This document shows, one piece after another, positions 6,120-25,606 of a stretch of 33,600 nucleotides of DNA. The stretch covers positions 1 through 33,600 of the forward strand of contig JBMFPI010000001.1 in assembly GCA_049969195.1 (NCBI GenBank). The letters are read 5' to 3'. This DNA comes from Armatimonadota bacterium. Lineage in GTDB: Bacteria > Armatimonadota > UBA5829. Position 1 is the stretch's first letter. Each line of letters begins with the position of its first letter. The position numbers and the translations under genes were made by a program. The notes under the pieces were generated by a model. It saw only the letters and a list, made by a program, of their open reading frames with translations, did no database searches and had not been told where the DNA came from.

Positions 6120-7055
6120 TTATTCAACATCTCCCAGCCGCTTGGCCCCCTCGCACACACCCTGGAACCGACACCACCGGCAGTGATCCGGATTGTCCGT
6201 TAAGGGGAACCGGCTAATGTCCGCATCCTCGAACGCCACCGGCTCGAGCTCGAGCATTTCCTCAAAGCTGCTCTTGACGAGCTCAGTCACGTCCATGATA
6301 TCCTGCGGGGTGGGCGTGAAGGTCTCGACTTTCAATACTGGCTGCAGGTATACAGCAGCGAGCCGCGCCTCGCACGGTTCCCACCCCCAGTTGTGTCGAG
6401 CATATAGTGAGTAAAGGACGAGCTGTCGCCGGTCGTCGTCATCAGCGGCGCCGGTTTTCCAATCTATAATGGCCGGCCGGTCCTGGAACCAGGCAAAATC
6501 GGGACGCGCATACACTTTGATCCCTTCGAGCTCGAATGATGGAAACCCATCCTCGTCCATCGCCATCCAGGTCGCTGGATCAGTTTCGGCGATTTCGACC
6601 CACAGCTTGGACCTGAAAAGGTTCTCGATGGAAGCTGCGGCGACGTCGCGGTTTTCCCTGGCTCTGCGTTCGGTATCCGGGAATCCGTAGTAGTGCTCCA
6701 GGAGATTCGTGAACTCCGAGGCTCTTCGGCCGGGAGGACGGTTGTCGATATGCCAGACTCTGTAATAGGATTCGCGCATCTTCTCGCGCATCAGCGAGGT
6801 TATGCGCTCGCGCGCGGCGTCGAGATCGACCCGGCGCCCTTCGCGCAGTGCGGCCAGTGATTCTGCGATGACCTGGTGCGTGACCTTCCCGCGCAGCATA
6901 GAAAGCGTGGTAATGTTGCGCATTTCGTAGAGCTTCCATCTCAGCTTCGGATCCTGGCCCCAGAAGCGCCAGTAGAAGTAGTATCTCCGGCAGTCGGTAA
7001 AATGCGTCTTTTGAGAGAATGACCAGCTCAGTTGGGAAGGTCGCCAGTCTTGCAT
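6120..7055 (-). CDS. Cas4/AddB-like PD-(D/E)XK nuclease with 4-Cys Fe-S motif
   Basis: Start taken at ATG 7055 (MQDWRPSQLSWSFSQKTHFTDCRRYYF...). Motifs: PDFAW...IIDWKTG (D...DxK), RRQLVLYSLY (QxxxY), and one N-terminal Cys plus C-terminal CRWCRFQGVC (Cx2Cx5C). The 434-aa long form in the track overlaps the well-supported N-terminus of the divergent gene. Confidence 0.8.
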   Translation of the reverse strand: MQDWRPSQLSWSFSQKTHFTDCRRYYFYWRFWGQDPKLRWKLYEMRNITTLSMLRGKVTHQVIAESLAALREGRRVDLDAARERITSLMREKMRESYYRVWHIDNRPPGRRASEFTNLLEHYYGFPDTERRARENRDVAAASIENLFRSKLWVEIAETDPATWMAMDEDGFPSFELEGIKVYARPDFAWFQDRPAIIDWKTGAADDDDRRQLVLYSLYARHNWGWEPCEARLAAVYLQPVLKVETFTPTPQDIMDVTELVKSSFEEMLELEPVAFEDADISRFPLTDNPDHCRWCRFQGVCEGAKRLGDVE

Positions 7056-7158
7056 ATTTGCTGGTTCAACGCTTCCATCGGCATTCCTGCCGAGCGGCAA
7101 GGGAAAGTGCTCGTTTTCGACGAAGTGACCTTTGCACGTTTCTGGAGGTCTATCGTTG

Positions 7159-8169
7159 ATGCAACCGATCGAAGCAATAGAAATTAATCGTCTGGCGATA
7201 CACGGGATAAGCAACTTCTCGGATGAGCCGGACATCGCCGACAGGGAAGAGGTCCTCTCTGAAGGCTTGCGGCATTTCTTCGAGGAACACATTCGCAACT
7301 GCGCGAAGTCACCGGGCGCTAAAGCAGGCAAGTTCAGAGGTTCCGACCGGACCGTTTCCGCCTGTGCGGCGCAAATGATGGCCGCGCCGGACGAGTTTGT
7401 GGAGAAGTGCGCCGTAATCGGCAAGTGGTTCGCCCATCAGACACGTCTGCTCTCCGATTTTCAAACGTACCTTGCCGTTGCTCTTTTCACAGACCCAACT
7501 TCCGAGGAGCGATATCTCGCCATCCTGAAACTTGATCCGGTTACGGCGTATGTGCGCCGGTCCAATGTGGCGGATTTCGAACAGGTAAAGATCCTCCCCG
7601 ACCCGACCCGGCATCTGGGAAGGTTCGCTATCCTCCAGCCCTACAACGACGATGCGCGATATGACCTGATCTTCCGCAACCAGCCTTTCTGGAAAGACGA
7701 GGATCCCGAGTCTGCGGCCATCTGGCTGGATGGTTTCCTCGAAGCGGAGGAGGTGGCGACGCCGCGGCAGATGACGCAGCTAGTGATGAAGGAAACCGAG
7801 AGGTGGATCGAATCGCGCATCGATGAGATCGGCGAGGAGTCGGCAGCACAGCTCAGGAACGCCGTCCGAACGCTCGCTCAGAGTGACGAGCTCGACATCG
7901 AGGCGATCGCTTCGGAAGCGATACCGGACGAAAATCACCGCGGGGACTACATCGGGCGACTCCTGGACCGCGGACTCACCGAGACGCGTTTCGCACCCGA
8001 CCGCGCCTGGGCCGAGCGCGCCTCTCGCAGGACGACTTACCTTTGCGACGACGGCGTGCAAATCAGCGGCCCGAGCGACGTAATCGACGACGTGGTCCAG
8101 ATACTCCCCAGAACCCCTGATCGCAAGACCCGGATCGTCATCGAAACTCGCAGGTTCGTTATGAAGTGA
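7159..8169 (+). CDS. NA37 family nucleoid-associated protein-like (NdpA/YejK-like)
   Basis: ATG 7159 with GGAGG 10 nt upstream. N-terminus MQPIEAIEINRLAIHGI resembles the YejK start (..I.QIALHQL). The central YLAILKLD block, length (336 aa) and overall layout fit the family. Assignment is by remembered family pattern only. Confidence 0.6.
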   Translation: MQPIEAIEINRLAIHGISNFSDEPDIADREEVLSEGLRHFFEEHIRNCAKSPGAKAGKFRGSDRTVSACAAQMMAAPDEFVEKCAVIGKWFAHQTRLLSDFQTYLAVALFTDPTSEERYLAILKLDPVTAYVRRSNVADFEQVKILPDPTRHLGRFAILQPYNDDARYDLIFRNQPFWKDEDPESAAIWLDGFLEAEEVATPRQMTQLVMKETERWIESRIDEIGEESAAQLRNAVRTLAQSDELDIEAIASEAIPDENHRGDYIGRLLDRGLTETRFAPDRAWAERASRRTTYLCDDGVQISGPSDVIDDVVQILPRTPDRKTRIVIETRRFVMK

Positions 8170-8203: not shown

Positions 8204-9829
8204 GTGTCCACGAAGCTCAATGTGCTCATATGCGTCTCGTTGGTTGTCATAACGGCTGCCGTCTACTGGCAAACATGCGGGTTCGACTTTACCAACTTCG
8301 ACGACCGGGTTTACGTAACCGGGAATCAGCACGTCCTCGGCGGGCTGACCCGCGAGAACATCCTCTGGGCATTCACAGCGCGGCGCGCAAACAACTGGCA
8401 TCCTCTGACGTGGATATCCCACATGGTTGATGTGGAGCTGAGCGACTTGGATCCGGGCGCGCATCATATGACGAATGTGATCCTTCACGTCATCAACACG
8501 CTGCTGGTTTTCGTGGTCCTCAACCGGATGACGAACCGCGCGTGGCCAAGCGCGTATGTGGCAGCGCTGTTTGGGGTTCATCCACTCCACGTAGAATCGG
8601 TAGCCTGGATCGCTGAGCGCAAGGACGTACTGAGCACGTTCTTCTGGCTACTCACCACGCTGGCCTACGCGCGTTATGTCAAGAATCCTCGGCCGGCGAA
8701 GTACGCATTGGTTATCGTCGCGTTCATCCTGGGCCTACTGTCAAAGCCCATGCTCGTGTCGTTGCCCCTAGTGCTCTTGATGCTGGATTACTGGCCTCTG
8801 CATCGCGGGTCGTCGTCTTTATCGGGCGTGCGCTTGTTTCGCGGTTTCGTGATGGAGAAGATTCCCCTCTTCGTGCTCGCACTCGCCTCGTGTGTGGTCA
8901 CGTTCTGGGTGCAGAAGACGACAGGTGCGGTGGCGACACTCGACGCCTACCCACTGGGCGTGCGGCTGGCCAATGCCGTGTCCGCGTACCTCCAATACCT
9001 GATCAAGGCCGTCTGGCCTGTGGGCCTTGCGTGCTACTATCCCCACCCCGGCCCCACTCTCCCAGTCTGGCAGACCGCGATGTCTGGAGTGATTCTGTCG
9101 GCAGTCACTGTTCTTGTCGTACGCCATGCGAGCAAAAGACCTTACCTTCTCGTCGGCTGGCTGTGGTATCTGGTAACGTTGATACCAGTTATCGGACTAG
9201 TTCAAGTCGGCAAACAGGCGATGGCCGATCGATATACGTATGTGCCTCTGATTGGCATCTTCGTCATTGTCGCGTGGGGTGTGCCTGATCTGGCGCGCAG
9301 GCTGAGTTTCGGCCGCGGGGAGCTGTCGGTCTGGGCCGGCAGATCGGGCATAGGGGCCGCAGTCGCGATCGTTGCCGTGCTGGCGTTCGCGACACACAGA
9401 CAGGCAGCCTATTGGCGCAACGACAACTCGATCTGGACCCGCGCCCTTGCTGTAACGAAGAACAACGCTTTTGCTCACTACAACCTAGGTACCACTCTGG
9501 CCACCCAGGGCGATAGCGACGGAGCCATCCGACATTTCAGGGAGGCAGTGCGGATCGACCCGAGGAAGTTCGATGCGTACTGTAACTTGGGCGTGATGCT
9601 TGCGCAGAAAGGTGACCTCGACGAAGCCATTAAACATTTCCGGGCCGCGGTCAAACTCAAACCCGGCGATCCCGTGTCACGGAGCAATCTGGGGCTCGCG
9701 CTCGTCAAGCGCGGGCAATATGCCGAAGCTATTCCGCACCTCCGCGCGGCGCTCAAGGCCAATCCGGAGGATGCGGATTCCAGAGAAGCTCTTGCTGTGG
9801 CTGTGGAACAAACACAACGGGCAAAGTAA
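8204..9829 (+). CDS. TMTC-like GT-C glycosyltransferase with C-terminal TPR repeats, paralogue 1
   Basis: GTG start. [51 protein letters not shown] (DUF1736-like) and [14 protein letters not shown], multiple TM segments, then TPR repeats (AHYNLGTTLATQGD...). These motifs parallel human TMTC (FVFDD, YRPLT, YHLLN..H, LFAVHPIHTEAV..GRAELL, AERILYVPSMGF). Confidence 0.85.
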   Translation: MSTKLNVLICVSLVVITAAVYWQTCGFDFTNFDDRVYVTGNQHVLGGLTRENILWAFTARRANNWHPLTWISHMVDVELSDLDPGAHHMTNVILHVINTLLVFVVLNRMTNRAWPSAYVAALFGVHPLHVESVAWIAERKDVLSTFFWLLTTLAYARYVKNPRPAKYALVIVAFILGLLSKPMLVSLPLVLLMLDYWPLHRGSSSLSGVRLFRGFVMEKIPLFVLALASCVVTFWVQKTTGAVATLDAYPLGVRLANAVSAYLQYLIKAVWPVGLACYYPHPGPTLPVWQTAMSGVILSAVTVLVVRHASKRPYLLVGWLWYLVTLIPVIGLVQVGKQAMADRYTYVPLIGIFVIVAWGVPDLARRLSFGRGELSVWAGRSGIGAAVAIVAVLAFATHRQAAYWRNDNSIWTRALAVTKNNAFAHYNLGTTLATQGDSDGAIRHFREAVRIDPRKFDAYCNLGVMLAQKGDLDEAIKHFRAAVKLKPGDPVSRSNLGLALVKRGQYAEAIPHLRAALKANPEDADSREALAVAVEQTQRAK

Positions 9830-9912
9830 CAGTTCGGCGAGGTTTCAACGTCCCGCTGGACAGTCCGGTTGCGCGGGAATCACCTTATGCTGAGTTTATC
9901 TCGGCACCCAGG
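9830..9912 (+). repeat. PE copy E0 (5'-truncated, decayed)
   Basis: Begins 1 nt after the paralogue-1 stop: CAGTTCGGCGA - GGTTTCAACGTCCCGCTGGACAGTCCGGTTGCGCGGGAA - TCACCTTATGC-TGAGTTTATCT-CGGCACCCAGG. The centre and bulge are recognisable; the arms are decayed. Confidence 0.45.
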
Positions 9913-9981
9913 CGCCCAATGGATGGATCCTGAATCGAGTTCACGATGACGGGGGTCTTGGGCATTTGCGCCTGTAAGGCA

Positions 9982-10033
9982 AGACTGAAACCAAACGGGA
10001 GAATCGCCGAAAACACGCGTACTGCAACAGCCT
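9982..10033 (-). repeat. PE copy E1 (half copy)
   Basis: GACTGAAACCAAACGGGAGAA-TCGCCGAAAACACGCG-TACTGCAACAGCCT is the bulge-less arm plus part of the centre, in inverted orientation. Confidence 0.5.
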
Positions 10034-10076
10034 GCTTGCCCGGCCGTTTGACCGATAACTCGCTCGCTGTTAGACT

Positions 10077-10170
10077 TGAGGTTGTTGCGATAGAAAACAA
10101 ACCCGGCGTTTCCTAGCGATTCGAAGGTTGTCGACTGAGCGGGAGAATCTACGAAAACGCTATCCCAAGG
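10077..10170 (-). repeat. PE copy E2 (near full, inverted orientation)
   Basis: TGAGGTTGTTGCGATAG-AAAACAAACCC-GGCGTTTCCTAGCGAT-TCGAAGGTTGTCGACTGAGCGGGAGAA-TCTACGAAAACGC-TATCCCAAGG. The distal outer arm is eroded. Confidence 0.75.
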
Positions 10171-10217
10171 GCCTGATATGTGGCTCCGGGGGCAGCATCT
10201 GAACACAGGGGTGCCGA

Positions 10218-10970
10218 ATGTTCAAAGGCAAGAAAGTCGTTGTGGTAATGCCTGCCTACAACGCCGAGCAAACTCTGCGCCGCACCTATGAGGAGGTAAT
10301 GGAGCAGGAGGTAGTGGACCAGGTTATCGTGGTGGACGATGCGAGCAAGGACGCCACGGTGGCCATTGCAAGGACGCTGCCGAACGTCATAGTGCACGTT
10401 CACCCGGAGAATATGGGCTACGGGGCCAACCAGAAGACATGCTACAGGCTTGCACTGGACGCAGGCGCCGACATCGTGATCATGGTCCATCCCGACTACC
10501 AGTATACCCCGAAGCTGATCCCGGCAATGGCCGCTCTCATAGGCAACGGCTTGTATTCGTGTGTGATCGGTTCTAGGGTGCTCGGCCGAGGCGCACTCAA
10601 AGGCGGTATGCCGCTGTGGAAGTACGTTGCGAACCGGTTTCTTACAATGGTCGAAAACGTGCTTCTGGGCATTAAGCTCTCCGAATATCACAGCGGTTAC
10701 CGCGCGTTCTCGCGCGAACTGCTCGAGCAGCTCCCTCTGGATGCCAACTCGGACGATTTCGTATTCGACAACCAGATGCTTGCTCAGATCGCGTGGTTCG
10801 GCCACACGATCGCCGAGATAAGCTGTCCTACAAAGTATTTCGCCGAGGCGTCTTCAATCAACTTTCGACGCAGCGTGATCTACGGTTTCGGCTGCCTGGC
10901 GACCGGGCTGAAGTTTCGCCTGGCCAGGTGGCGACTGATCAACTCGAAGATGCTCCCTAGGCATGCGTAG
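10218..10970 (+). CDS. GT2 family glycosyltransferase, polyprenyl-phosphate sugar synthase-like (DPM1/GtrB-like)
   Basis: [37 protein letters not shown]. The 250-aa soluble GT-A layout is typical of DPM1/GtrB-type enzymes. Its stop overlaps the start of the next gene (ATGCGTAG). Confidence 0.85.
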
Positions 10971-12561
10971 AAAAAGCTCCCACCCCGTCGATGTGTGGAT
11001 CGCAGTGCTTCTGGCGGGGCTGACCTTCGCTATCTATTTCCAGACGATGCGGTTCGAGTTCACCAACCTGGACGACAACCGCTACGTCACCGAAAACCCG
11101 TACGTCAAAGCAGGCCTCACGCTCCGCGGTATCGCCTGGGCGTTCACTACGCCCTACGCGGCCAATTGGCACCCGCTCACGTGGCTGTCGCATATGCTCG
11201 ATTGCAGCTTGAGCGGCCTAAACCCGGGCAGACACCATCTCACGAATGTTCTCTTGCACGCCGCCAACTCGATCCTGCTATTTGCGGTTCTTCTCAGGCT
11301 CACCGGATTTCGATGGCGAAGCGCTGCCGTGGCGGCCCTTTTTGCCGCGCACCCCCTGCACGTGGAATCGGTCGCGTGGGTCGCCGAGCGCAAGGACGTG
11401 CTTAGCACATTGTTCTGGCTCTTCACGATGCTGGCATACGCGGGCTACGTAAGAAGACCTGATCGTGCCCGGTACGTATTGGTCTTCCTGCTCTACGTGC
11501 TTGGCCTCCTGTCGAAACCGATGCTCGTCTCGTTGCCGCTGGTACTGCTGGCGGTAGACTACTGGCCCCTGGGCCGCATCGCCAGGCGGGGGGCGTTTCG
11601 TTCGATTCTCATCGAAAAGATCCCGCTGTTGGCGGCGGCGCTGGCGTCTTGCGTTGTGACATTCTGGGTTCAGAGGGCCAGCGGAGCGATGCGGGCGATG
11701 GACGTCTACCCAATTGGTGCGCGGCTGGCAAACGCCGTGGTTGCGTATGCGGCGTACATCGTCAAGGCGATATGGCCAGTCGGCCTGGCTTGTTTCTATC
11801 CGCATCCGGGACCGAATCTGCCTTTGTGGCAGACCGTTGCCTCTACCGTAGCCCTCGGCATTGTTACAGCCGTAGCGGTATGCCTGCGAGGCCGAAGACC
11901 GTATATACTTGTGGGATGGATGTGGTATCTGGTTACGCTGATTCCCGTGATCGGCCTGGTGCAGGTCGGCCGACAGGCGATGGCCGACCGGTACACCTAC
12001 GTTCCGTTGGTCGGCATATTCATCATTGCGGCCTGGGCTGTCGGTGACTTTGTTGTCGGAAGCAGGCGGCGGACGGCCGTCGCCGTGGGCGCTCTGTGTG
12101 CGATCCTGACGGTCCTATCGGTCTCGGCTTTCGTACAAACCGGCTACTGGCGGGATAGTATCACGCTGTTCAGCCGCGCCGTTCGGGTCACCCGGAACAA
12201 CGGTTTCGCGGAGTACAATCTCGGTTGTGCGCTGCTCTCGAATGGGGACCGTGAGTCTGCGTGCTACCATGTGCGCAGGGCGCTTCGAATGTTGCCCTGG
12301 GATCCGATTACTAGGAACGGCCTCGGCTGTGACCTCGTGGAGCAAGGCCTGCTGACCGAAGCAATCGAGTGTTTTCAGGCGGCGATCCGGCGCAACCCTG
12401 CGTTCGTCGAAGCTTATTTGAATCTTGGGGTCGCGTACGCGCGAACCGGGAACACGGCGGAGGCAGTTCGAAGCTTCCGAAAAGCACTTCAGCTCGATCC
12501 AGGCAGCACAAGCGCCCGCAGAGCCCTGCAAACGCTCGAGGAACGCTTGGGGGTGAAGTGA
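10963..12561 (+). CDS. TMTC-like GT-C glycosyltransferase with C-terminal TPR repeats, paralogue 2
   Basis: [51 protein letters not shown] and [14 protein letters not shown], with TPR repeats at the C-terminus. Confidence 0.85.
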
Positions 12562-12562
12562 C

Positions 12563-14221
12563 GTGAGCAGAAAAAACCTCAGGAACCCTGATCTATGGAT
12601 CGCTATTGGTCTTGCCATTTTGACCCTTGCGATCTACTGGCAAACCGTACACTTCGACTTCACAAGCTTCGACGACGACAAGTACGCCGAGGAAAACCCT
12701 GCGGTGCGAATCGGCGTACGGTCCCAGACTGTGCTCTGGGCACTCCGCACCAACTACATGGCCAACTGGCATCCGCTCACCTGGATATCCCTTATGGCGG
12801 ACACCGATGCGGCCGCTATCGCCTACTGGCTATTCGACATCAGCCTGGGAAAGCAAAACTCGGGGTTTCACCACCTCGGCAACATACTGCTGCACACAGC
12901 CAACGCAGTGCTGCTTTTCCTTGTGCTCAACGTAATGACAGGCCGGCGGTGGCCGAGTGCGTTCGTCGCGGCTCTGTTCGCGGTGCACCCACTGCACGTG
13001 GAGTCGGTAGCCTGGATATCGGAGCGAAAAGACGTGCTGAGCACATTGTTCTGGCTGTTGACAATGATGGCATACGTGCGTTACGTACGGAACCCGGGCA
13101 CCAGGGCGTACCTGTGGGTTGTCGGCGCCTATGCGCTCGGGTTGATGTCGAAGTCGATGCTGGTTTCGCTACCCATCGTGCTTCTTTTGCTGGATCTGTG
13201 GCCTCTTCACCGCGACACGCGGTCCTACCGCGAGCTATTCGTCGAGAAAGTGCCCCTATTTGTACTTGCTGCCATCACGTGTGTGCTCACTTTGTGGGCT
13301 CAAAAGTCCGGCGGAGCAGTGGCAAGCATAGCCGACTACCCCATTGGCGTAAGGTTGGCTAACGCCGCAGTCGCCTACTTCGCTTATCTGTGGAAGATGA
13401 TCTGGCCGGTGGGATTGTCGATGCTGTATCTACACCCCGGGAGAGGTCTTCCGGTCTGGCAGGTTCTCGGATCGGTTATCGGCCTGATTGTGCTGACGGT
13501 AGCCGCGATCCGAGTGGCTCGAAGTCGACCCTACTTCACCGTCGGATGGCTCTGGTACCTCATAACGCTCGTGCCTGTGATCGGCATCGTACAGGTCGGC
13601 AAGCAGGCGATGGCGGATCGGTATACCTACGTGCCGTTAATCGGAATATTCGTGGCGATAGCATGGGGGGTTCCCGATGTGTTGGGAAGACGCGAAGGGC
13701 GGCAGCAGGTCGCAGGATCGATTGCCCTTGGGATCACAAGCTGCCTGGTAATCGCCGCGCTAGCCGCAACGGCGTATCCCAGAATCGGCGTGTGGCGAAA
13801 CAACGTCACGCTTTTCACCAGCGCCATAGCGGTGGACCCCAAGAACTCGTTCGCCTACTGCGGCCTGGGAACCGAGCTCATCGATCAGGGCGATACTGAA
13901 GGTGCCATTAGAAACCTCCTGAAAGCCCTGAAATACCATCCTGAGTATACGGACGCGCGATACAACCTCGCTGAGGCGTATCGCGAGGCCGGAAGAATCG
14001 ACAAGGCGATCGAGCAATATAAGCTCGTAATTCGGCAGTGCCCCAGGTACGAAAGAGCTCATAACAACCTCGGCAGCATATACGCCCTGCAAGGCAAGTA
14101 CGATCTGGCAATTGCCGAGTTCAAAACCGTTCTGAAAATCAACCCTCATCATCCGAGCGCGCGTAACAACCTCCGAAACGCTCAACGCGCTAAAGCAGCC
14201 AAAGCAGGACTTCTCCGATAG
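12563..14221 (+). CDS. TMTC-like GT-C glycosyltransferase with C-terminal TPR repeats, paralogue 3
   Basis: GTG start 1 nt after the paralogue-2 stop. FDFTSFDD, NWHPLTWISLM, an extra ~25-aa insertion (ADTDAAAIAYWLFDISLGKQNSGF), [37 protein letters not shown], then TPR repeats. Confidence 0.85.
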   Translation: MSRKNLRNPDLWIAIGLAILTLAIYWQTVHFDFTSFDDDKYAEENPAVRIGVRSQTVLWALRTNYMANWHPLTWISLMADTDAAAIAYWLFDISLGKQNSGFHHLGNILLHTANAVLLFLVLNVMTGRRWPSAFVAALFAVHPLHVESVAWISERKDVLSTLFWLLTMMAYVRYVRNPGTRAYLWVVGAYALGLMSKSMLVSLPIVLLLLDLWPLHRDTRSYRELFVEKVPLFVLAAITCVLTLWAQKSGGAVASIADYPIGVRLANAAVAYFAYLWKMIWPVGLSMLYLHPGRGLPVWQVLGSVIGLIVLTVAAIRVARSRPYFTVGWLWYLITLVPVIGIVQVGKQAMADRYTYVPLIGIFVAIAWGVPDVLGRREGRQQVAGSIALGITSCLVIAALAATAYPRIGVWRNNVTLFTSAIAVDPKNSFAYCGLGTELIDQGDTEGAIRNLLKALKYHPEYTDARYNLAEAYREAGRIDKAIEQYKLVIRQCPRYERAHNNLGSIYALQGKYDLAIAEFKTVLKINPHHPSARNNLRNAQRAKAAKAGLLR

Positions 14222-14230
14222 GACATCATC

Positions 14231-14248
14231 GGGCGCGTTTTCGGCAGA
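14231..14248. repeat. PE core motif only (copy F remnant)
   Basis: GGGCGCGTTTTCGGCAGA, 10 nt after the paralogue-3 stop. No partner arm is recognisable. Confidence 0.3.
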
Positions 14249-14358
14249 CTTAGGCGCGGCGCCAACAGTCATTCCGAGCGGTGCAGGGCTTTTCGGCACG
14301 ACTGTCGAACCTACATCCGGCACCGATGCCGATAACGTGCACTTCGAGGTATTTAGCC

Positions 14359-15804
14359 GTGTCAGCAGTCGTCCTGGAAGAACCGATTGTCGGATGCCCA
14401 CCGTTTCGGCGGCTGTTTTTGGACGCCATGGTCGTCGAGGAGTCCGAGGGGCTCAGCCGCATTTTTCACGCCGCAGAAAAGCATCCTGCAAACCCCGTGA
14501 TGCCGAAGGACCGACCCTGGGAAGGCTGGGGACCGTATGTCTACGGCACTGTTATGTGGGACGAAGGCAAGCTCAAGATGTGGTACCAGGTTATCAACCC
14601 GGACCCCGGCATCCACGCGGGCGCTCTGTACGCTGAATCGGGGGACGGTATCAACTGGTTCAAGCCAGACCTGGGAATTGTGGAGTGTCTGGGTTCAACC
14701 GCGAACAACATCTTTGCTGAAAGCGAATGCGGGATTCCCAGCGTGATGAAACTGGCCGACCCGGAGTCGGAGGACAAACGCTGGGCGGTCTACAGCTACG
14801 GACGCGGGGACGTAGGGCCGCACGTAGCGTTCTCTTCCGACGGGCTTCGCTTCCGCTGGCACGAGAAGCCCGAGTACATGAAACTTTTCTCCAGCGGCGA
14901 CGTCGTGAATTTCTTCTATGATCCCTACCGAAACAGGTATGTATCCACGCTCAAGAGCGGCAGCCGAAGACACCGCGCGGTCGGCGTTGCGTTCTCGAAC
15001 GACGGCATCAACTGGCACAAGCCTATCGACTCTGCCGTTTTCGCCGCGGATGACCTGGACCCGGACGCAACTCAAGTCTACGGCATGCCCGTATTCTGCT
15101 ACCAGGGCTGCTATGTCGGCCTGCCGTGGATCTACCACGCCCGATGGATCAAATACGGCAAGTACACGTCTCCAAAGGTTATGTACGAGGCTCAGGAGGG
15201 CAGCCCGTGCACTGTGGATGTGCAACTTGCCTGGAGCTGGGACATGATAAACTGGACGCGCACGCCGACGCGCGAGCCGTTTCTCGCACTCGGTAAGTGG
15301 CCTCACGACTTCGACTGCGGCATGATCTACACGGCACGGGCGCCGGTCGTGGTTGACGACAAGCTGTATTTCTACTACGGCGGGTTCGACAGGCTTCACG
15401 ACGCCGACTTCGACAAGATCAAGGGCGCAATCGGCCTCGCTACCCTGCGACTGGACGGGTTCTGCTCGATGAGCGCCGGCAATGAAGAGGGCTGGCTGAT
15501 CAGCAGGCGCGAGGTGTTCAATACTCCGCGTGTTGCAATCAACGCTCGCATGAGGCCCGGCGGCTATGTACTAGCCGAGCTGGTAGACCGCCACAACAAC
15601 GTGATAGACGGTTTCTCACGAGCAGAATGCGTGCCGTTTGTGGGCGACTCGACCTGCCATGTGCTTGAGTGGAAAACCAGGTCTTTCCCCGCGGAGCTGA
15701 CGGACAAGGACAAGAAGATCAAGTTCTACCTGAAAAACGCCGACCTCTACTCGTACCTGCCGCAGGACATCAACACGCAAATCGACGCGTGGCCGCCCGA
15801 CTAG
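14359..15804 (+). CDS. beta-propeller glycoside-hydrolase-like protein (GH32/43/130-type fold)
   Basis: GTG 14359 (GAGG 9 nt upstream) gives MSAVVLEEPIVGCPPFRRLFLDAMVVEE...KHPANPVM. Recurring blade motifs: SGDGINW, SSDGLRFRW, SNDGINW, WDMINW. No signal peptide. The family call is approximate. Confidence 0.65.
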   Translation: MSAVVLEEPIVGCPPFRRLFLDAMVVEESEGLSRIFHAAEKHPANPVMPKDRPWEGWGPYVYGTVMWDEGKLKMWYQVINPDPGIHAGALYAESGDGINWFKPDLGIVECLGSTANNIFAESECGIPSVMKLADPESEDKRWAVYSYGRGDVGPHVAFSSDGLRFRWHEKPEYMKLFSSGDVVNFFYDPYRNRYVSTLKSGSRRHRAVGVAFSNDGINWHKPIDSAVFAADDLDPDATQVYGMPVFCYQGCYVGLPWIYHARWIKYGKYTSPKVMYEAQEGSPCTVDVQLAWSWDMINWTRTPTREPFLALGKWPHDFDCGMIYTARAPVVVDDKLYFYYGGFDRLHDADFDKIKGAIGLATLRLDGFCSMSAGNEEGWLISRREVFNTPRVAINARMRPGGYVLAELVDRHNNVIDGFSRAECVPFVGDSTCHVLEWKTRSFPAELTDKDKKIKFYLKNADLYSYLPQDINTQIDAWPPD

Positions 15805-16053: not shown

Positions 16054-17658
16054 GTGGGCATCGAGCTCAAGAAAAAAGCGCGCACAAGGCTTGCTGCGGA
16101 GCAGCGAAAGGTCAAGGCTGACCGCGCCGCACCTGTTCGTTTCGCCCTCGCCTATCCCAACGTATACCGCGTCGGAATCGCCTCGCTGGGCTTTCAGCTT
16201 GTCTACCGGATGATCAACGATCTTCCCGATGCTTCGTGCGAGCGCGTCTTCGTGCCGGACCCGGAAGATCTCAAGGAACACGAGAGAACCGGCACAGAGC
16301 TCTTTACCCTGGAGAGCCAATCCCCTCTTTCCGAGTTCGACATCGTGGGTTTCTCGATCGCGTTCGAGATGGACTACCTCAACGTGCTTCGAGTTTTGCG
16401 GCTTGCCAACATTCCCATCAGGTCGGTCGATCGAAATGACTCACACCCGCTGGTAATAGCCGGCGGACCGTGTGCAACGCTGAATCCGGAGCCGCTTGCC
16501 GACTTCGTGGATGCGTTCGTAGTCGGCGACGCGGAGGACGTTCTCTCTCGATTAGTCCCTTCGGTTCTTGAGCACAGGAGCGCAGGCCGGGCCGGATTAC
16601 TCAGGGCGCTCGCAGAACTGAGCGAGGTGTATGTGCCGTCCTATGGCCGCGGCGCAACGCGGGCGGTGTGTAGATGTTTGTCTAAACATCCGCAGAATTC
16701 TTGCATATATTCGCCCGATGGAGAGTTCGGTGAGATCGAGCTGATAGAAGTTTCACGCGGCTGCGGCAGGGGATGCCGGTTCTGCGCCGCAGGCTGGATT
16801 AGTCGTCCCGTCAGGTTCAGAGATCTCCCGGAGACTGTCGGGTCGCGCAGAACGGGTCTGATCGGCGCAGCGGTGTTCGACCATCCAGAAGTAGCGGATT
16901 TCTGCAGGCGAATCGTTACATCCCGCACTGAGTTTAGCGTGTCTAGTGTGCGCCTTGAGACGGTGACGCCCGAGATGGCGAATCTGCTGGCGGCTGGCGG
17001 CCAGAAGACACTGACTATAGCACCTGAGGCCGGCACGCAACGGCTGAGAAGGGTGATCGGAAAGGAGTGCACGGATGATCAGATAGCCAACGCGGTCTCC
17101 GCAGCCTGCAGCGCCGGCCTGCGTAAGGTCAAGCTGTACTTCATGATCGGGCTGCCGAGTGAGACGGATGCCGACGTAGACTCGATCGCCGACCTGCTCG
17201 AGGGGCTTGCGGCAGATTTTCCGTCGATTGAGGTTGAGGCATCCGTCAGCAGCTTTGTGCCGAAGCCCTGGACTCCATTTCAGTGGCATCCTATGGAGCG
17301 TGAGACCGTGCTTAGACGGCGCTATGCGGCGTTGTCCAGGCAAATACGCGCCATTCCCAGGGTCTCTTTGAGCGGCGAAAGCCCGAGACTGGCGATAATC
17401 CAGGGCGTCCTCGCGCGCGGGGACCGGCGAATGGGACAACTACTCGAGGCGGCGCTTGCAACCAACGGCGATTATCGTGCGGCGGTCCGGCAGACCGGCA
17501 TCGATATCGGATGGTATCTACACCGGCCTCGACCGTTAGATGAGGTGCTGCCCTGGGAAGTCATTGATTCAGGAATCGACAAGAAGCTTCTGTGGGCGGA
17601 GTATCAGAAGGCACTTCACGACCTTCCTGCCGACACAAACAAGGGAGGTTGCGCCTAA
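16054..17658 (+). CDS. radical SAM protein (B12-binding-like N-terminal domain; TIGR03960-like)
   Basis: VRFALAYPNVYRVGIASLGFQLVY N-terminal pattern. CxxxCxxC motif in EVSRGCGRGCRFCAAG. Confidence 0.85.
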   Translation: MGIELKKKARTRLAAEQRKVKADRAAPVRFALAYPNVYRVGIASLGFQLVYRMINDLPDASCERVFVPDPEDLKEHERTGTELFTLESQSPLSEFDIVGFSIAFEMDYLNVLRVLRLANIPIRSVDRNDSHPLVIAGGPCATLNPEPLADFVDAFVVGDAEDVLSRLVPSVLEHRSAGRAGLLRALAELSEVYVPSYGRGATRAVCRCLSKHPQNSCIYSPDGEFGEIELIEVSRGCGRGCRFCAAGWISRPVRFRDLPETVGSRRTGLIGAAVFDHPEVADFCRRIVTSRTEFSVSSVRLETVTPEMANLLAAGGQKTLTIAPEAGTQRLRRVIGKECTDDQIANAVSAACSAGLRKVKLYFMIGLPSETDADVDSIADLLEGLAADFPSIEVEASVSSFVPKPWTPFQWHPMERETVLRRRYAALSRQIRAIPRVSLSGESPRLAIIQGVLARGDRRMGQLLEAALATNGDYRAAVRQTGIDIGWYLHRPRPLDEVLPWEVIDSGIDKKLLWAEYQKALHDLPADTNKGGCA

Positions 17659-24026: not shown

Positions 24027-24125
24027 AGGCTGTTGCCGTGAGCCCGTTTTCGGCGATTTTGCCGCTTAGTGGGGGAGCGTCGAATCGCCGGAAACCCCGG
24101 ATTTGTATTCCATCGCAGCAATTCC
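24027..24125 (+). repeat. PE copy J (full, diverged)
   Basis: AGGCTGTTGCCGTGAGCCCGTTTTCGGCGA-TTTTGCCGCTTAGTGGGGGAGCGTCGAA-TCGCCGGAAACCC-CGGATTTGTAT-TCCATCGCAGCAATTCC. The 11-bp inner stem has 1 G:U on +. Confidence 0.8.
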
Positions 24126-24232
24126 TTGTTGCAAGCAGCAGGATGTGCAACCCTGCCCGCACCAAGGGTAACGAATCGCCGTTCAGTTTCCCGCAGAAGA
24201 GGAATTCGCCGCGTTTCGGGCTAAATGAAAGA

Positions 24233-24281
24233 CTGGGCGACTGCCGGGGACGTAGCCGTCCCATCTGGATGCGTCGCCCAG
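24233..24281 (+). other. nested hairpin in the 5' leader of the aminotransferase gene
   Basis: 9-bp outer stem CTGGGCGAC (24233-24241) / GTCGCCCAG (24273-24281) enclosing GGGACG-TAGC-CGTCCC. It ends 30 nt before the ATG at 24311. Confidence 0.35.
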
Positions 24282-24310
24282 CCGATTACGCAACTGAAAA
24301 GGAGAGTCAA

Positions 24311-25606
24311 ATGGCGTTGGCTGAGGACAAGCTGGCCATAGACGGCGGCATGCCGGTCAAGACGACGCAGACACCCCCCATGTATCCTGGCGGCCTGGAG
24401 ATAGGCGAAGAGGAAAAGGCCGAAATCCTGGACGTACTTGAACACAAGTACCTCTTCCGGTATTACGGGCCTTCGGATGCTCCTTCGAAGGTGAGGCAGC
24501 TCGAGGTCGAGTTCGCCAAATTGATCGGGATGAAGTACGCACTGGCAGTTAACTCCTGCACCTCCGCCCTGATATGCTCGTTGATCGCGGTGGGCGTAGG
24601 ACCGGGCGACGAGGTCATCGTGCCCGGATACACCTTCTTTGCCAGTTGTGCGGCCATCGTCGCGGCGAAGGCCATACCCGTTATCGCTGAGGTTGATGAT
24701 TCGCTTACCCTGGATCCCGATGACCTCGAGAAGAAGATCACGCCGCGGACAAAGGCCGTGATACCTGTCCACATGCGCGGCGCACCGTGTGACATGGACC
24801 GAATCCTTGCGGTGGCAAGAAAACACAATCTGAAGGTGGTCGAGGACGTCGCGCAGGCGTGCGGAGGGAGCTACAAAGGCAAGCGGCTCGGCTCCTTTGG
24901 AGACTGTAACGCTTTCAGCCTTCAGTATCACAAGATCATCACGGCAGGCGAGGGCGGACTGGTCGTGACGAACGACCTCCTGCTCTACGACCGAGCACAG
25001 GCCTATCACGACACGGCAGCTTGCTGGCGGCCCGACCGCTTCGGTCTACCGCGATACGAAGGCGAGGTCTTTCCCGGCGTGAACTTCCGCATGAGCGAGC
25101 TCCACGGGGCAGTCGCGCTGGCGCAGCTTCGCAAGCTCGACGGCCTGCTCGCAAGAATGCGCGCCAATAAGAAGCGAATCAAGGACCAGATCTCTGACAT
25201 CCCGGGAATCACGTTTCGCCGTCTGAACGACGAGGCGGGAGACACCGCAATCTGTCTCATATTCTTCCTCAAGGACGGCGAGACAACGGAAAAGTTTGCC
25301 AGGGCGCTCGCGGCGGAGGGTGTTCCGGCCGGCTGTATCTACTCGGAAGGCGTTCCGGACTGGCACATTTATGCTCACTGGAAGATGATAATGGACAAGG
25401 TTACGGCCACGCCAGAGGGATGTCCCTACACCTGCCACTACTACACCGAGCGCGGGGGCAAGGCCGAATACAGCCCAGATATGTGTCCAAAGACGCTGGA
25501 TTACCTGGGGCGCACGATCCATCTCGACATACCACCGCAGATGACTGAAGAGGACTGCGACCTGACTGCGAAAGCAATTCGCAAGGTCGCTAAGGCATTG
25601 CTGTAG
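24311..25606 (+). CDS. DegT/DnrJ/EryC1/StrS family PLP-dependent sugar aminotransferase
   Basis: ATG 24311 with GGAGAG RBS. Active-site lysine context FSLQYHKIITAGEGG. The track ORF start (24038) reads through repeat J. Confidence 0.88.
   Translation: MALAEDKLAIDGGMPVKTTQTPPMYPGGLEIGEEEKAEILDVLEHKYLFRYYGPSDAPSKVRQLEVEFAKLIGMKYALAVNSCTSALICSLIAVGVGPGDEVIVPGYTFFASCAAIVAAKAIPVIAEVDDSLTLDPDDLEKKITPRTKAVIPVHMRGAPCDMDRILAVARKHNLKVVEDVAQACGGSYKGKRLGSFGDCNAFSLQYHKIITAGEGGLVVTNDLLLYDRAQAYHDTAACWRPDRFGLPRYEGEVFPGVNFRMSELHGAVALAQLRKLDGLLARMRANKKRIKDQISDIPGITFRRLNDEAGDTAICLIFFLKDGETTEKFARALAAEGVPAGCIYSEGVPDWHIYAHWKMIMDKVTATPEGCPYTCHYYTERGGKAEYSPDMCPKTLDYLGRTIHLDIPPQMTEEDCDLTAKAIRKVAKALL

Follow-up and report, generated by a model that had tools for sequence, protein, structure and literature searches.

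The window analysed here comprises the first 33,600 nucleotides (nt) of the forward strand of contig JBMFPI010000001.1, from an Armatimonadota bacterium (GTDB lineage Bacteria; Armatimonadota; UBA5829; GenBank assembly GCA_049969195.1), and it contains on the plus strand the operon of four genes that is the subject of this work. Three of them encode paralogous proteins resembling the animal TMTC glycosyltransferases, that is, a membrane domain of the glycosyltransferase GT-C class followed by an arm of tetratricopeptide repeats (TPRs). They are called P1 (8204-9829, 541 amino acids (aa)), P2 (10963-12561, 532 aa) and P3 (12563-14221, 552 aa) below. The fourth gene (10218-10970), located between P1 and P2, encodes a 250-aa family 2 glycosyltransferase of the GT-A fold (GT2), which lacks a transmembrane (TM) anchor and is predicted to be a polyprenyl-phosphate hexose synthase similar to DPM1, PpgS and AglJ. 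The stop codon of the GT2 gene (TAG, 10968-10970) lies beyond the ATG of P2 at 10963, which gives an overlap of 8 nt, and the TGA of P2 ends at 12561, leaving 1 nt to the GTG start of P3 at 12563. The coordinates of the open reading frames (ORFs) in the window, as well as this overlap and spacing, are the same as in a first-pass annotation made from the letters of the window.

The assignment of P1 as a TMTC-like GT-C/TPR protein with 11 TM helices and four periplasmic TPRs draws on the ORF, on AF2 models and on a profile match. The models were built from an alignment of 62-64 sequences, one for full-length P1 (pLDDT 92.1, pTM 0.91) and one for residues 1-405 (pLDDT 90.3, pTM 0.92). Both have the 11 TM helices, and loops 1 and 4 contain juxtamembrane helices; the full-length model has in addition eight C-terminal helices that form the four TPRs. 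From the clustering of lysine and arginine in those loops that are predicted to be cytoplasmic, it follows that both the Asp-Asp (DD) pair in loop 1 and the TPR arm are periplasmic. When the N-terminal model was compared to the PDB with Foldseek, only GT-C enzymes were found above E = 0.3, namely STT3A, Pmt4, PglB, AglB, ArnT, DPY19, ALG9, PIG-U, AftB and Emb, with E values of 1e-3 to 1e-1 and TM-scores of ~0.4-0.5. Since all these matches are GT-C enzymes, the fold assignment of the modelled N-terminal domain is secure, and the GT-C character proposed in the first-pass annotation is thus supported. The ranking among the GT-C classes is too flat to decide between TMTC and ArnT and was rejected for that purpose: the top matches are the oligosaccharyltransferases STT3, PglB and AglB, ArnT (5f15) comes at rank 9 with a TM-score of 0.42, and no TMTC or TMEM260 structure is among the matches in the PDB copy searched. 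The question was instead addressed by comparing profiles with published sequences of TMTCs. With the full-length model, Foldseek returned TPR proteins only; in a PDB sequence search the full alignment was swamped by TPR matches and the N-terminal profile did not give any match. Pfam finds TPRs at residues 415-540 of P1 and, on the membrane domains, a borderline PMT_2 match in P1 (3.5e-7) and P3 (1.5e-5) and nothing in P2.

For the profile comparison, the supplementary alignment of PMC7801869 provided the N-terminal parts of human TMTC1-4 as well as the segments of ArnT (5EZM) and of yeast Pmt1 (6P25) aligned with them. A hidden Markov model (HMM) of the bacterial N-terminal domain reaches human TMTC1-4 with hmmsearch at 70-81 bits (E 1e-17 to 1e-21, Z = 1e6), and TMTC1 is aligned over positions 12-396 of the 401 positions of the model. 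ArnT 5EZM and Pmt1 6P25 are not reported by the same model even at E<=1000. In hhalign, the bacterial profile and the profile of the four TMTCs match with 99.2% probability (E 1.3e-19, 348 columns, 24% identity), while the ArnT and Pmt1 controls stay below 0.5%; these controls are single, partly masked sequences and thus weaker than a full profile, yet the contrast is very large. Judged by these profiles, the N-terminal domains are specifically TMTC-like rather than ArnT- or PMT-like, and on this choice the first-pass annotation had taken the right side. It should be pointed out that ArnT is the best relative with a solved structure even for the TMTCs themselves (PMC7801869), so that "closer to ArnT" is a poor test for refuting a relationship to TMTC. 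Among other GT-C families, neither PMT/POMT (GT39; Pfam PF02366 or MIR) nor TMEM260 (DUF2723, at E<=10) has a Pfam match in the paralogues. TMEM260 constitutes family GT117.

A motif-by-motif comparison, following the list of TMTC motifs in PMC7801869, gives a more detailed picture. Across 64 family members, residues D33, D34, H126, P127, E131, R139, D141, K181, R343 and Y346 are invariant. The DD pair of loop 1, whose loss the first-pass annotation had named as evidence that would count against its proposal, is intact in all three paralogues, D33/D34 being aligned to D52/D53 of TMTC1. In loop 2, a motif of 14 letters is aligned to HPIHTEAVAG..GRAD of TMTC, that is, HPxHxE followed by RxD, and in loop 5 the (D/E)RxxY motif before TM10 is kept, with ADRYTYVP aligned to AERVLYMP. 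The loop-1 motif SHKSYRP is reduced to its (W/Y)(H/R)PL part (NWHPLT), and conservation does not extend to the His, Lys and Ser of SHKS. The motifs common to TMTC and the bacterial family are DD, (Y/W)(R/H)PL, HxxN..LH, HPxHxExV...(G/E)RxD(V/L)L, the lysine of loop 3 and A(E/D)RxxYxP. As all three copies retain every invariant catalytic residue, none of them looks like a pseudoenzyme.

The three paralogues can be aligned over their full length, where the identity to P1 is 55% for P2 and 51% for P3 (50-55% over the three pairs), and over the N-terminal ~400 aa the values are 62% and 56%, which bears out the view of the first-pass annotation that the paralogues have in common a highly similar N-terminal part, over half identical. 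Invariant in all three are two long blocks of 43 and 12 letters, and as motifs a set of 38 letters together with ADRYTYVP. The nucleotide identity is 55-63%, with longest exact common runs of 14-17 nt, and at third codon positions where the residues are identical it is ~45%; the synonymous sites are saturated. The conservation at the nucleotide level that had been noticed earlier is no more than what amino-acid conservation imposes.

Two other Armatimonadota genomes, the metagenome-assembled genome GCA_029907315.1 (L001) and a 202-kb Logan contig (L002), carry a positional orthologue of every paralogue, and in a neighbour-joining tree P2 and P3 cluster with their own positional orthologues. 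The triplication is old because the synonymous sites are saturated and because these orthologues exist; together with the short exact runs, this led us to reject recent duplication or gene conversion, which the first-pass annotation had left as a matter for alignment and phylogeny. From the sequences, the three genes are ancient subfunctionalised paralogues and not recent copies. The difference between their C-terminal TPR regions, also remarked on earlier, is borne out as well, with an identity of 31-37% among P1-P3; when the comparison is made domain by domain, the TPR arms are 28-38% and the membrane domains 47-61% identical between paralogues, so that the arms are far more divergent than the N-terminal part, while between orthologues the corresponding values are 49-76% and 55-68%. 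This pattern fits a situation in which each paralogue holds its own TPR arm under selection for a distinct partner or acceptor. One detail of the first-pass annotation needs correction, namely the insertion in periplasmic loop 1 of P3, which had been put at ~25 aa; in the alignment it measures 12 aa, and it is common to all P3 orthologues.

Turning to the GT2, it has a Pfam Glycos_transf_2 match at 3.7e-26, and its best NCBIfam matches are AglJ, PpgS, dolichyl-phosphate (Dol-P) hexose transferase, PgfS and ArnC. In the PDB, the best match is the Dol-P-mannose (Dol-P-Man) synthase of Pyrococcus furiosus (5mlz, 4.4e-9), with which the VVDDxSxD, IGSR and SG(Y/F) motifs align. These matches support the earlier proposal that the enzyme is of the type that loads a sugar onto polyprenyl phosphate, and it is probably the maker of a lipid-linked donor. 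Among 80 family loci from other genomes, 12 have a GT2 orthologue with 60-76% identity within 5 kb of a TMTC-like gene, and 8 of these 12 have the two ORFs abutting and on one strand. The lineages concerned are Desulfobacterota (delta-proteobacterial), Planctomycetota (Pirellulales), Chlorobi (Chlorobiaceae), Acidobacteriota, Gemmatimonadota (Gemmatimonadaceae) and Verrucomicrobiota (Verrucomicrobiae). The GT2 orthologues are more conserved than the GT-C genes; at the level of sequence they are a distinct, highly conserved subfamily (60-87% identity across phyla) that is not captured by any NCBIfam model. The recurrence of this linkage in distant phyla is the strongest argument that the GT2 and the GT-C proteins would be functionally connected. 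The loci in which such orthologues lie near TMTC-like genes are L029, L035, L037, L041, L042, L060, L066, L072, L074, L080, L083 and L085.

The genes of the window are typical members of a very large, published and functionally uncharacterised family. A word-indexed search gives at least 8000 matches, the best 120 of which are 52-79% identical, the window's own P2 excepted, and an exhaustive HMMER search with the N-terminal-only profile gives 92,507, 60,822 and 24,371 clusters (50% identity) at E<=1e-3, 1e-10 and 1e-30, respectively. Two exact peptide patterns are found at no fewer than 593 loci in GTDB species genomes, which come from Planctomycetota, Desulfobacterota, Verrucomicrobiota, Acidobacteriota, Gemmatimonadota, Chlorobi, Hydrogenedentota and Armatimonadota. 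Tandem GT-C arrays are common, with two or more copies in 36 and three or more in 21 of the 80 loci. Members are named "tetratricopeptide repeat protein", "TadD" or "PilF", and in JGI "protein O-mannosyl-transferase". Essentially full-length prokaryotic homologues of TMTC, TPRs included, were noted in 2021 in many poorly characterised hosts, with AMJ42_05695 of Deltaproteobacteria bacterium DG_8 as an example (PMC7801869), and they belong to the same family as the genes discussed here. What is given there is a BLAST match only; the recurrent GT2 linkage, the tandem arrays, the orthologue-specific TPRs and the motif differences are not in that paper. Our literature searches for a functional study of bacterial TMTC homologues found none, in agreement with the statement of the first-pass annotation that these are uncharacterised.

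In the Desulfobacterales contigs L003/L004 (777-17611), five to six tandem TMTC-like paralogues are found together with a separate PMT/PMT_2 gene. This array adjoins genes for an NDP-sugar epimerase/dehydratase, a DegT aminotransferase and a methyltransferase, which are typical of surface-glycan loci, and these neighbours suggest that the transferred sugar in some lineages may be a modified deoxy- or amino-sugar.

We propose that the cluster is a two-step, lipid-carrier-dependent periplasmic glycosylation module with the same logic as the animal Dol-P-Man/TMTC system, a proposal that we regard as evenly poised between right and wrong, and in which Ser/Thr residues of proteins are the favoured acceptors. 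In the animal system, TMTC1-4 (CAZy family GT105) are protein O-mannosyltransferases of the endoplasmic reticulum (ER) for cadherins and protocadherins; they use Dol-P-Man to O-mannosylate Ser/Thr of specific protein domains, and a DPM1-type enzyme supplies this donor. Their architecture is the same as that of P1-P3, with an 11-TM GT-C core followed by a non-cytoplasmic TPR arm, and the profile similarity is end to end; the linked GT2 would be the counterpart of DPM1. In the proposed mechanism, the anchorless GT2, located at the cytoplasmic face of the inner membrane, would move one sugar, most likely a hexose and possibly mannose, from a nucleotide sugar to polyprenyl (undecaprenyl) phosphate, as suggested by homology. 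The lipid-linked sugar would then be flipped to the periplasmic face by a protein encoded outside the window. Finally, each of the three GT-C enzymes would transfer the sugar with inversion, using the DD of loop 1, the HPxHxE...RxD of loop 2, K181 and the arginine of the DRYxY motif in loop 5. The acceptor would be presented by the four-repeat periplasmic TPR arm of each enzyme, and since these arms are kept between orthologues but diverge from one paralogue to another, each of the three enzymes most likely has an acceptor of its own.

By analogy with TMTC, TfpW, Ppm1/Pmt and GtrB/PgtC2, these acceptors are most likely Ser/Thr residues of envelope proteins, which would be O-linked to the sugar. 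Proteins are favoured because the only characterised relatives detectable by sequence act on proteins, because a bacterial GT-C enzyme with a TPR arm, TfpW, glycosylates a pilin, and because protein O-glycosylation by a GT2 and a GT-C protein is established in streptococci. TfpW is the pilin D-arabinofuranosyltransferase of Pseudomonas aeruginosa; its predicted TM helices number 11, its DDx motif is periplasmic, and so is the TPR domain at its C-terminus (bioRxiv 10.1101/2020.04.19.049825). Like P1-P3, it is a bacterial GT-C protein with 11 TM helices and a TPR arm; unlike the window locus, its gene adjoins pilA and is linked to a cluster for the D-Araf precursor. In the Ppm1/Pmt system of Actinobacteria and the GtrB/PgtC2 and PgfS/PgfM1 systems of streptococci, a GT2 makes a polyprenyl-phosphate-linked monosaccharide and a GT-C enzyme transfers it to Ser/Thr of an extracytoplasmic protein (PMC12041528). 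The logic is the same as that proposed here, but the GT-C enzymes are of the PMT (GT39) or YfhO families and lack a TPR arm, and the GtrB-type synthases are membrane-anchored, which the GT2 of the window is not.

A number of observations weigh against this interpretation. Of the KE(T/Q)xxT motif in loop 3, the lysine is kept (K181), but the position of the glutamate is occupied by P182 (SKPML). In the loop that joins TM7 to TM8, the DW motif is aligned to Y278-Y279, an (F/Y)Y with PHP after it. The bacterial family lacks the DNPA segment, which in the alignment is an insertion found in TMTC alone, and Pfam DUF1736 (PF08409) has no match in the paralogues even at E<=10. In TMTC, the lysine of KE has been proposed to bind phosphate, while the glutamate of KE and the aspartate of DW have been proposed as metal ligands (PMC7801869). 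As the latter residues are not conserved, details of the active site differ from TMTC, and by its sequence the family is a genuine TMTC relative with a different loop-4 (DUF1736) region and different proposed metal-binding residues. The TMTC motif set of which the first-pass annotation spoke is incomplete, with DD, HPxHxE, RxD, the loop-3 lysine and (D/E)RxxY kept and KE, DW, DNPA and DUF1736 lacking. There are also other differences from TMTC: the carrier would be undecaprenyl and not dolichyl phosphate, the genes are found in operons and tandem arrays, and the window paralogues have only four TPRs. The TMTCs have ~8-10 or more.

The GT2 adds further difficulties. Its NCBIfam scores (<=59 bits) are all far below the curated cut-offs (>=325), it has H-P-D where the 5mlz synthase has D-A-D, the canonical DxD motif, and it has no TM segment or membrane anchor. 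The substitution is a fixed one, HPDYQY being invariant in 15 out of 15 GT2 orthologues at the position of DADLQH in the Dol-P-Man synthase. Furthermore, in 68 of the 80 family loci the flanks that were fetched contain no linked GT2. In the window, no flippase candidate of the GtrA, MATE or other type was found by Pfam among the scanned ORFs, and no gene for a candidate acceptor or client is linked to the cluster. It also has to be considered that TPR domains occur on polysaccharide-handling proteins, so that the TPR arms do not prove a protein acceptor. In sum, the annotation part of the first-pass reading is largely right, and its functional interpretation is partly supported.

These difficulties leave room for other explanations. 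The main one, which we consider rather unlikely, keeps the same donor logic and changes the acceptor, which would be lipopolysaccharide (LPS) or lipid A, an exopolysaccharide or peptidoglycan, with the TPR arms docking on export or assembly machinery or binding glycan. ArnT, the Gtr O-antigen systems, PpgS/Rv3779 and the GT136 three-component systems would be its models, and GT2/GT-C pairs that modify glycans are the commonest bacterial precedent (PMC11127046). ArnC/ArnT, GtrA/GtrB/Gtr and PpgS/Rv3779 do have the same two- or three-component logic as the module proposed here, and PpgS, which is the second-best NCBIfam match of the GT2, is like it in size and in having no TM helices. The acceptors of these systems are lipid A, the O antigen or arabinogalactan, and they differ from the window proteins in lacking a TPR arm. 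ArnT (GT83) is among the structural matches of the paralogues, at the level of the general GT-C fold, but it has no sequence match to them, and the only model that Pfam gives for their TM domain, PMT_2, is a broad GT-C one. The sole relatives detected by sequence, the TMTCs, act on proteins, with ArnT and Pmt1 undetected, and TfpW demonstrates that a bacterial GT-C enzyme with a TPR arm can do so too. TPRs are also present on polysaccharide export proteins, and BcsC and PgaA are among the weak NCBIfam TPR matches; still, three distinct arms conserved between orthologues fit several macromolecular clients better than one polymer. The Desulfobacterales arrays adjoin genes for deoxy- and amino-sugar nucleotides typical of surface-glycan loci, whereas in the window no glycan-assembly genes (Wzx/Wzy, an ABC exporter or an initiating transferase) are found near the cluster.

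It is improbable, in our estimate, that the GT2 is not the donor maker at all but an ordinary Leloir glycosyltransferase of some other pathway, in which case the donor of the GT-C enzymes would be made elsewhere and could be an oligosaccharide, as in oligosaccharyltransferases. The low scores of the GT2, its missing first Asp of DxD and its missing membrane segment would be accounted for in this way, as would the many loci without a GT2 nearby and the top Foldseek matches to STT3, PglB and AglB. The Foldseek ranking is, however, not discriminating among GT-C classes (E 1e-3 to 1e-1, TM-score ~0.5), and the best matches of the GT2 are consistently polyprenyl-phosphate monosaccharide synthases. 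More importantly, a GT2 orthologue with 60-87% identity is found near TMTC-like genes in at least six phyla, mostly abutting them, which is unlikely to result from chance or from an unrelated function. Finally, the paralogues could be TPR scaffolds without a catalytic function, for instance factors of pilus assembly, as the names "Flp pilus assembly protein TadD" and "Tfp pilus assembly protein PilF" given to some members would have it. We think this very improbable indeed: these names stem from the TPR part alone, the best conserved part is the 400-aa TM domain, the GT-C catalytic residues are invariant in the 64 members, and no pilus genes are located near the cluster in the window.

Returning to lipid-carrier-dependent glycosylation of proteins, it can tentatively be extended from the window to the family as a whole, although we find this wider claim somewhat more doubtful than not. 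The family would then be a widespread system for the O-glycosylation of proteins that has gone unrecognised in diderm bacteria (Armatimonadota, Desulfobacterota, Planctomycetota, Verrucomicrobiota, Acidobacteriota and other phyla), in which a dedicated anchorless polyprenyl-phosphate hexose synthase feeds arrays of TMTC-type enzymes, each TPR arm having its own envelope client. The cadherin O-mannosylation by TMTCs in animals would have in it a prokaryotic counterpart and possibly its evolutionary origin; in animals, the TMTCs are disease genes, associated with cobblestone lissencephaly and with hearing loss. Should the family indeed glycosylate proteins, many environmental phyla would have a major envelope modification that has so far escaped notice, and the family's members could serve as tractable, paralogue-rich models for client choice by TPR arms and for TMTC catalysis. 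The size of this bacterial family is enormous, its models are confident, and its genes are found in operons with a probable donor synthase. For the window itself the outcome is mainly one of annotation, as its genes are typical members in an uncultured Armatimonadota-like genome; the interest comes from the family.

We finally consider the surroundings of the four genes. The gene order common to the window, L001 and L002 is a PD-(D/E)XK nuclease gene on the opposite strand, P1, the GT2 gene, P2, P3, a gene for a protein of 480 aa and one for a B12/radical-SAM protein. Between P1 and the GT2 gene, the window has a non-coding gap of 388 nt (9830-10217, assigned to no strand), which is a possible internal promoter region; the corresponding distance is 60 nt in L001, and in L002 the genes abut. 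A scan for promoters and terminators gave nothing above chance, with a single weak promoter-like site at 10048-10076 in the gap, and an Rfam search of the window, gap included, had zero matches. The gap may hold an internal promoter or be the leftover of an insertion. On the minus strand, it contains a 108-aa ORF (9880-10206) that has no Pfam match.

Downstream of P3, on the plus strand, lies a conserved hypothetical ORF of 507 aa (14281-15804), which is distantly similar to family GH130, that is, to the fold of beta-mannoside phosphorylases and hydrolases. It has no Pfam or NCBIfam match, and as a single sequence it matches nothing. The profile of its family, comprising 778 homologues with essentially no Pfam annotation, reaches GH130 structures weakly: 4onz at 3e-6 (the sum of three weak stretches), 7fip, a beta-1,2-mannobiose phosphorylase, at 7e-4, and 5a7v at 0.06. 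As the homologues are mostly ~480-500 aa long, the true start is probably at 14326 or 14359, and no signal peptide is seen by eye. Another member of the family is located at L006 8001-9503. The family adjoins GT-C genes in Armatimonadota loci only and stands alone elsewhere. For the glycosidase-like character that the first-pass annotation had given this neighbour, the family profile offers a weak match; judging from its distribution, the ORF is probably just a neighbour, which could at most be a faint hint towards mannose, and not a core part of the module.

The B12-binding radical-SAM protein is encoded at 16054-17658 and scores 397 bits with TIGR03960, below the cut-off of 462 bits. It is syntenic in the three Armatimonadota loci only, and a functional connection to the cluster is not evident. 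With synteny limited to Armatimonadota, both this gene and the GH130-like one were rejected as parts of the module.

On the other side of the cluster, a gene for an NA37-type nucleoid-associated protein (7132-8169) is located between the nuclease gene and P1. No gene is called at this position in L001 or L002, and the NA37 gene therefore has the look of an insertion specific to this lineage. The maximal ORFs of this gene and of the nuclease (6120-7424, minus strand) overlap by ~290 nt, and the true start of one or both therefore probably lies further in. The remaining part of the window is housekeeping, with GroEL, TspO, ProC, DivIVA, alanine racemase, GpsA and others. At 24038-25606, some 10 kb away from the cluster, there is also an ORF of 522 aa for a DegT/DnrJ/EryC1-type aminotransferase, a gene of the sugar-aminotransferase kind, whose Pfam domain begins at residue 122, so that it has either a long N-terminal extension or a miscalled start.

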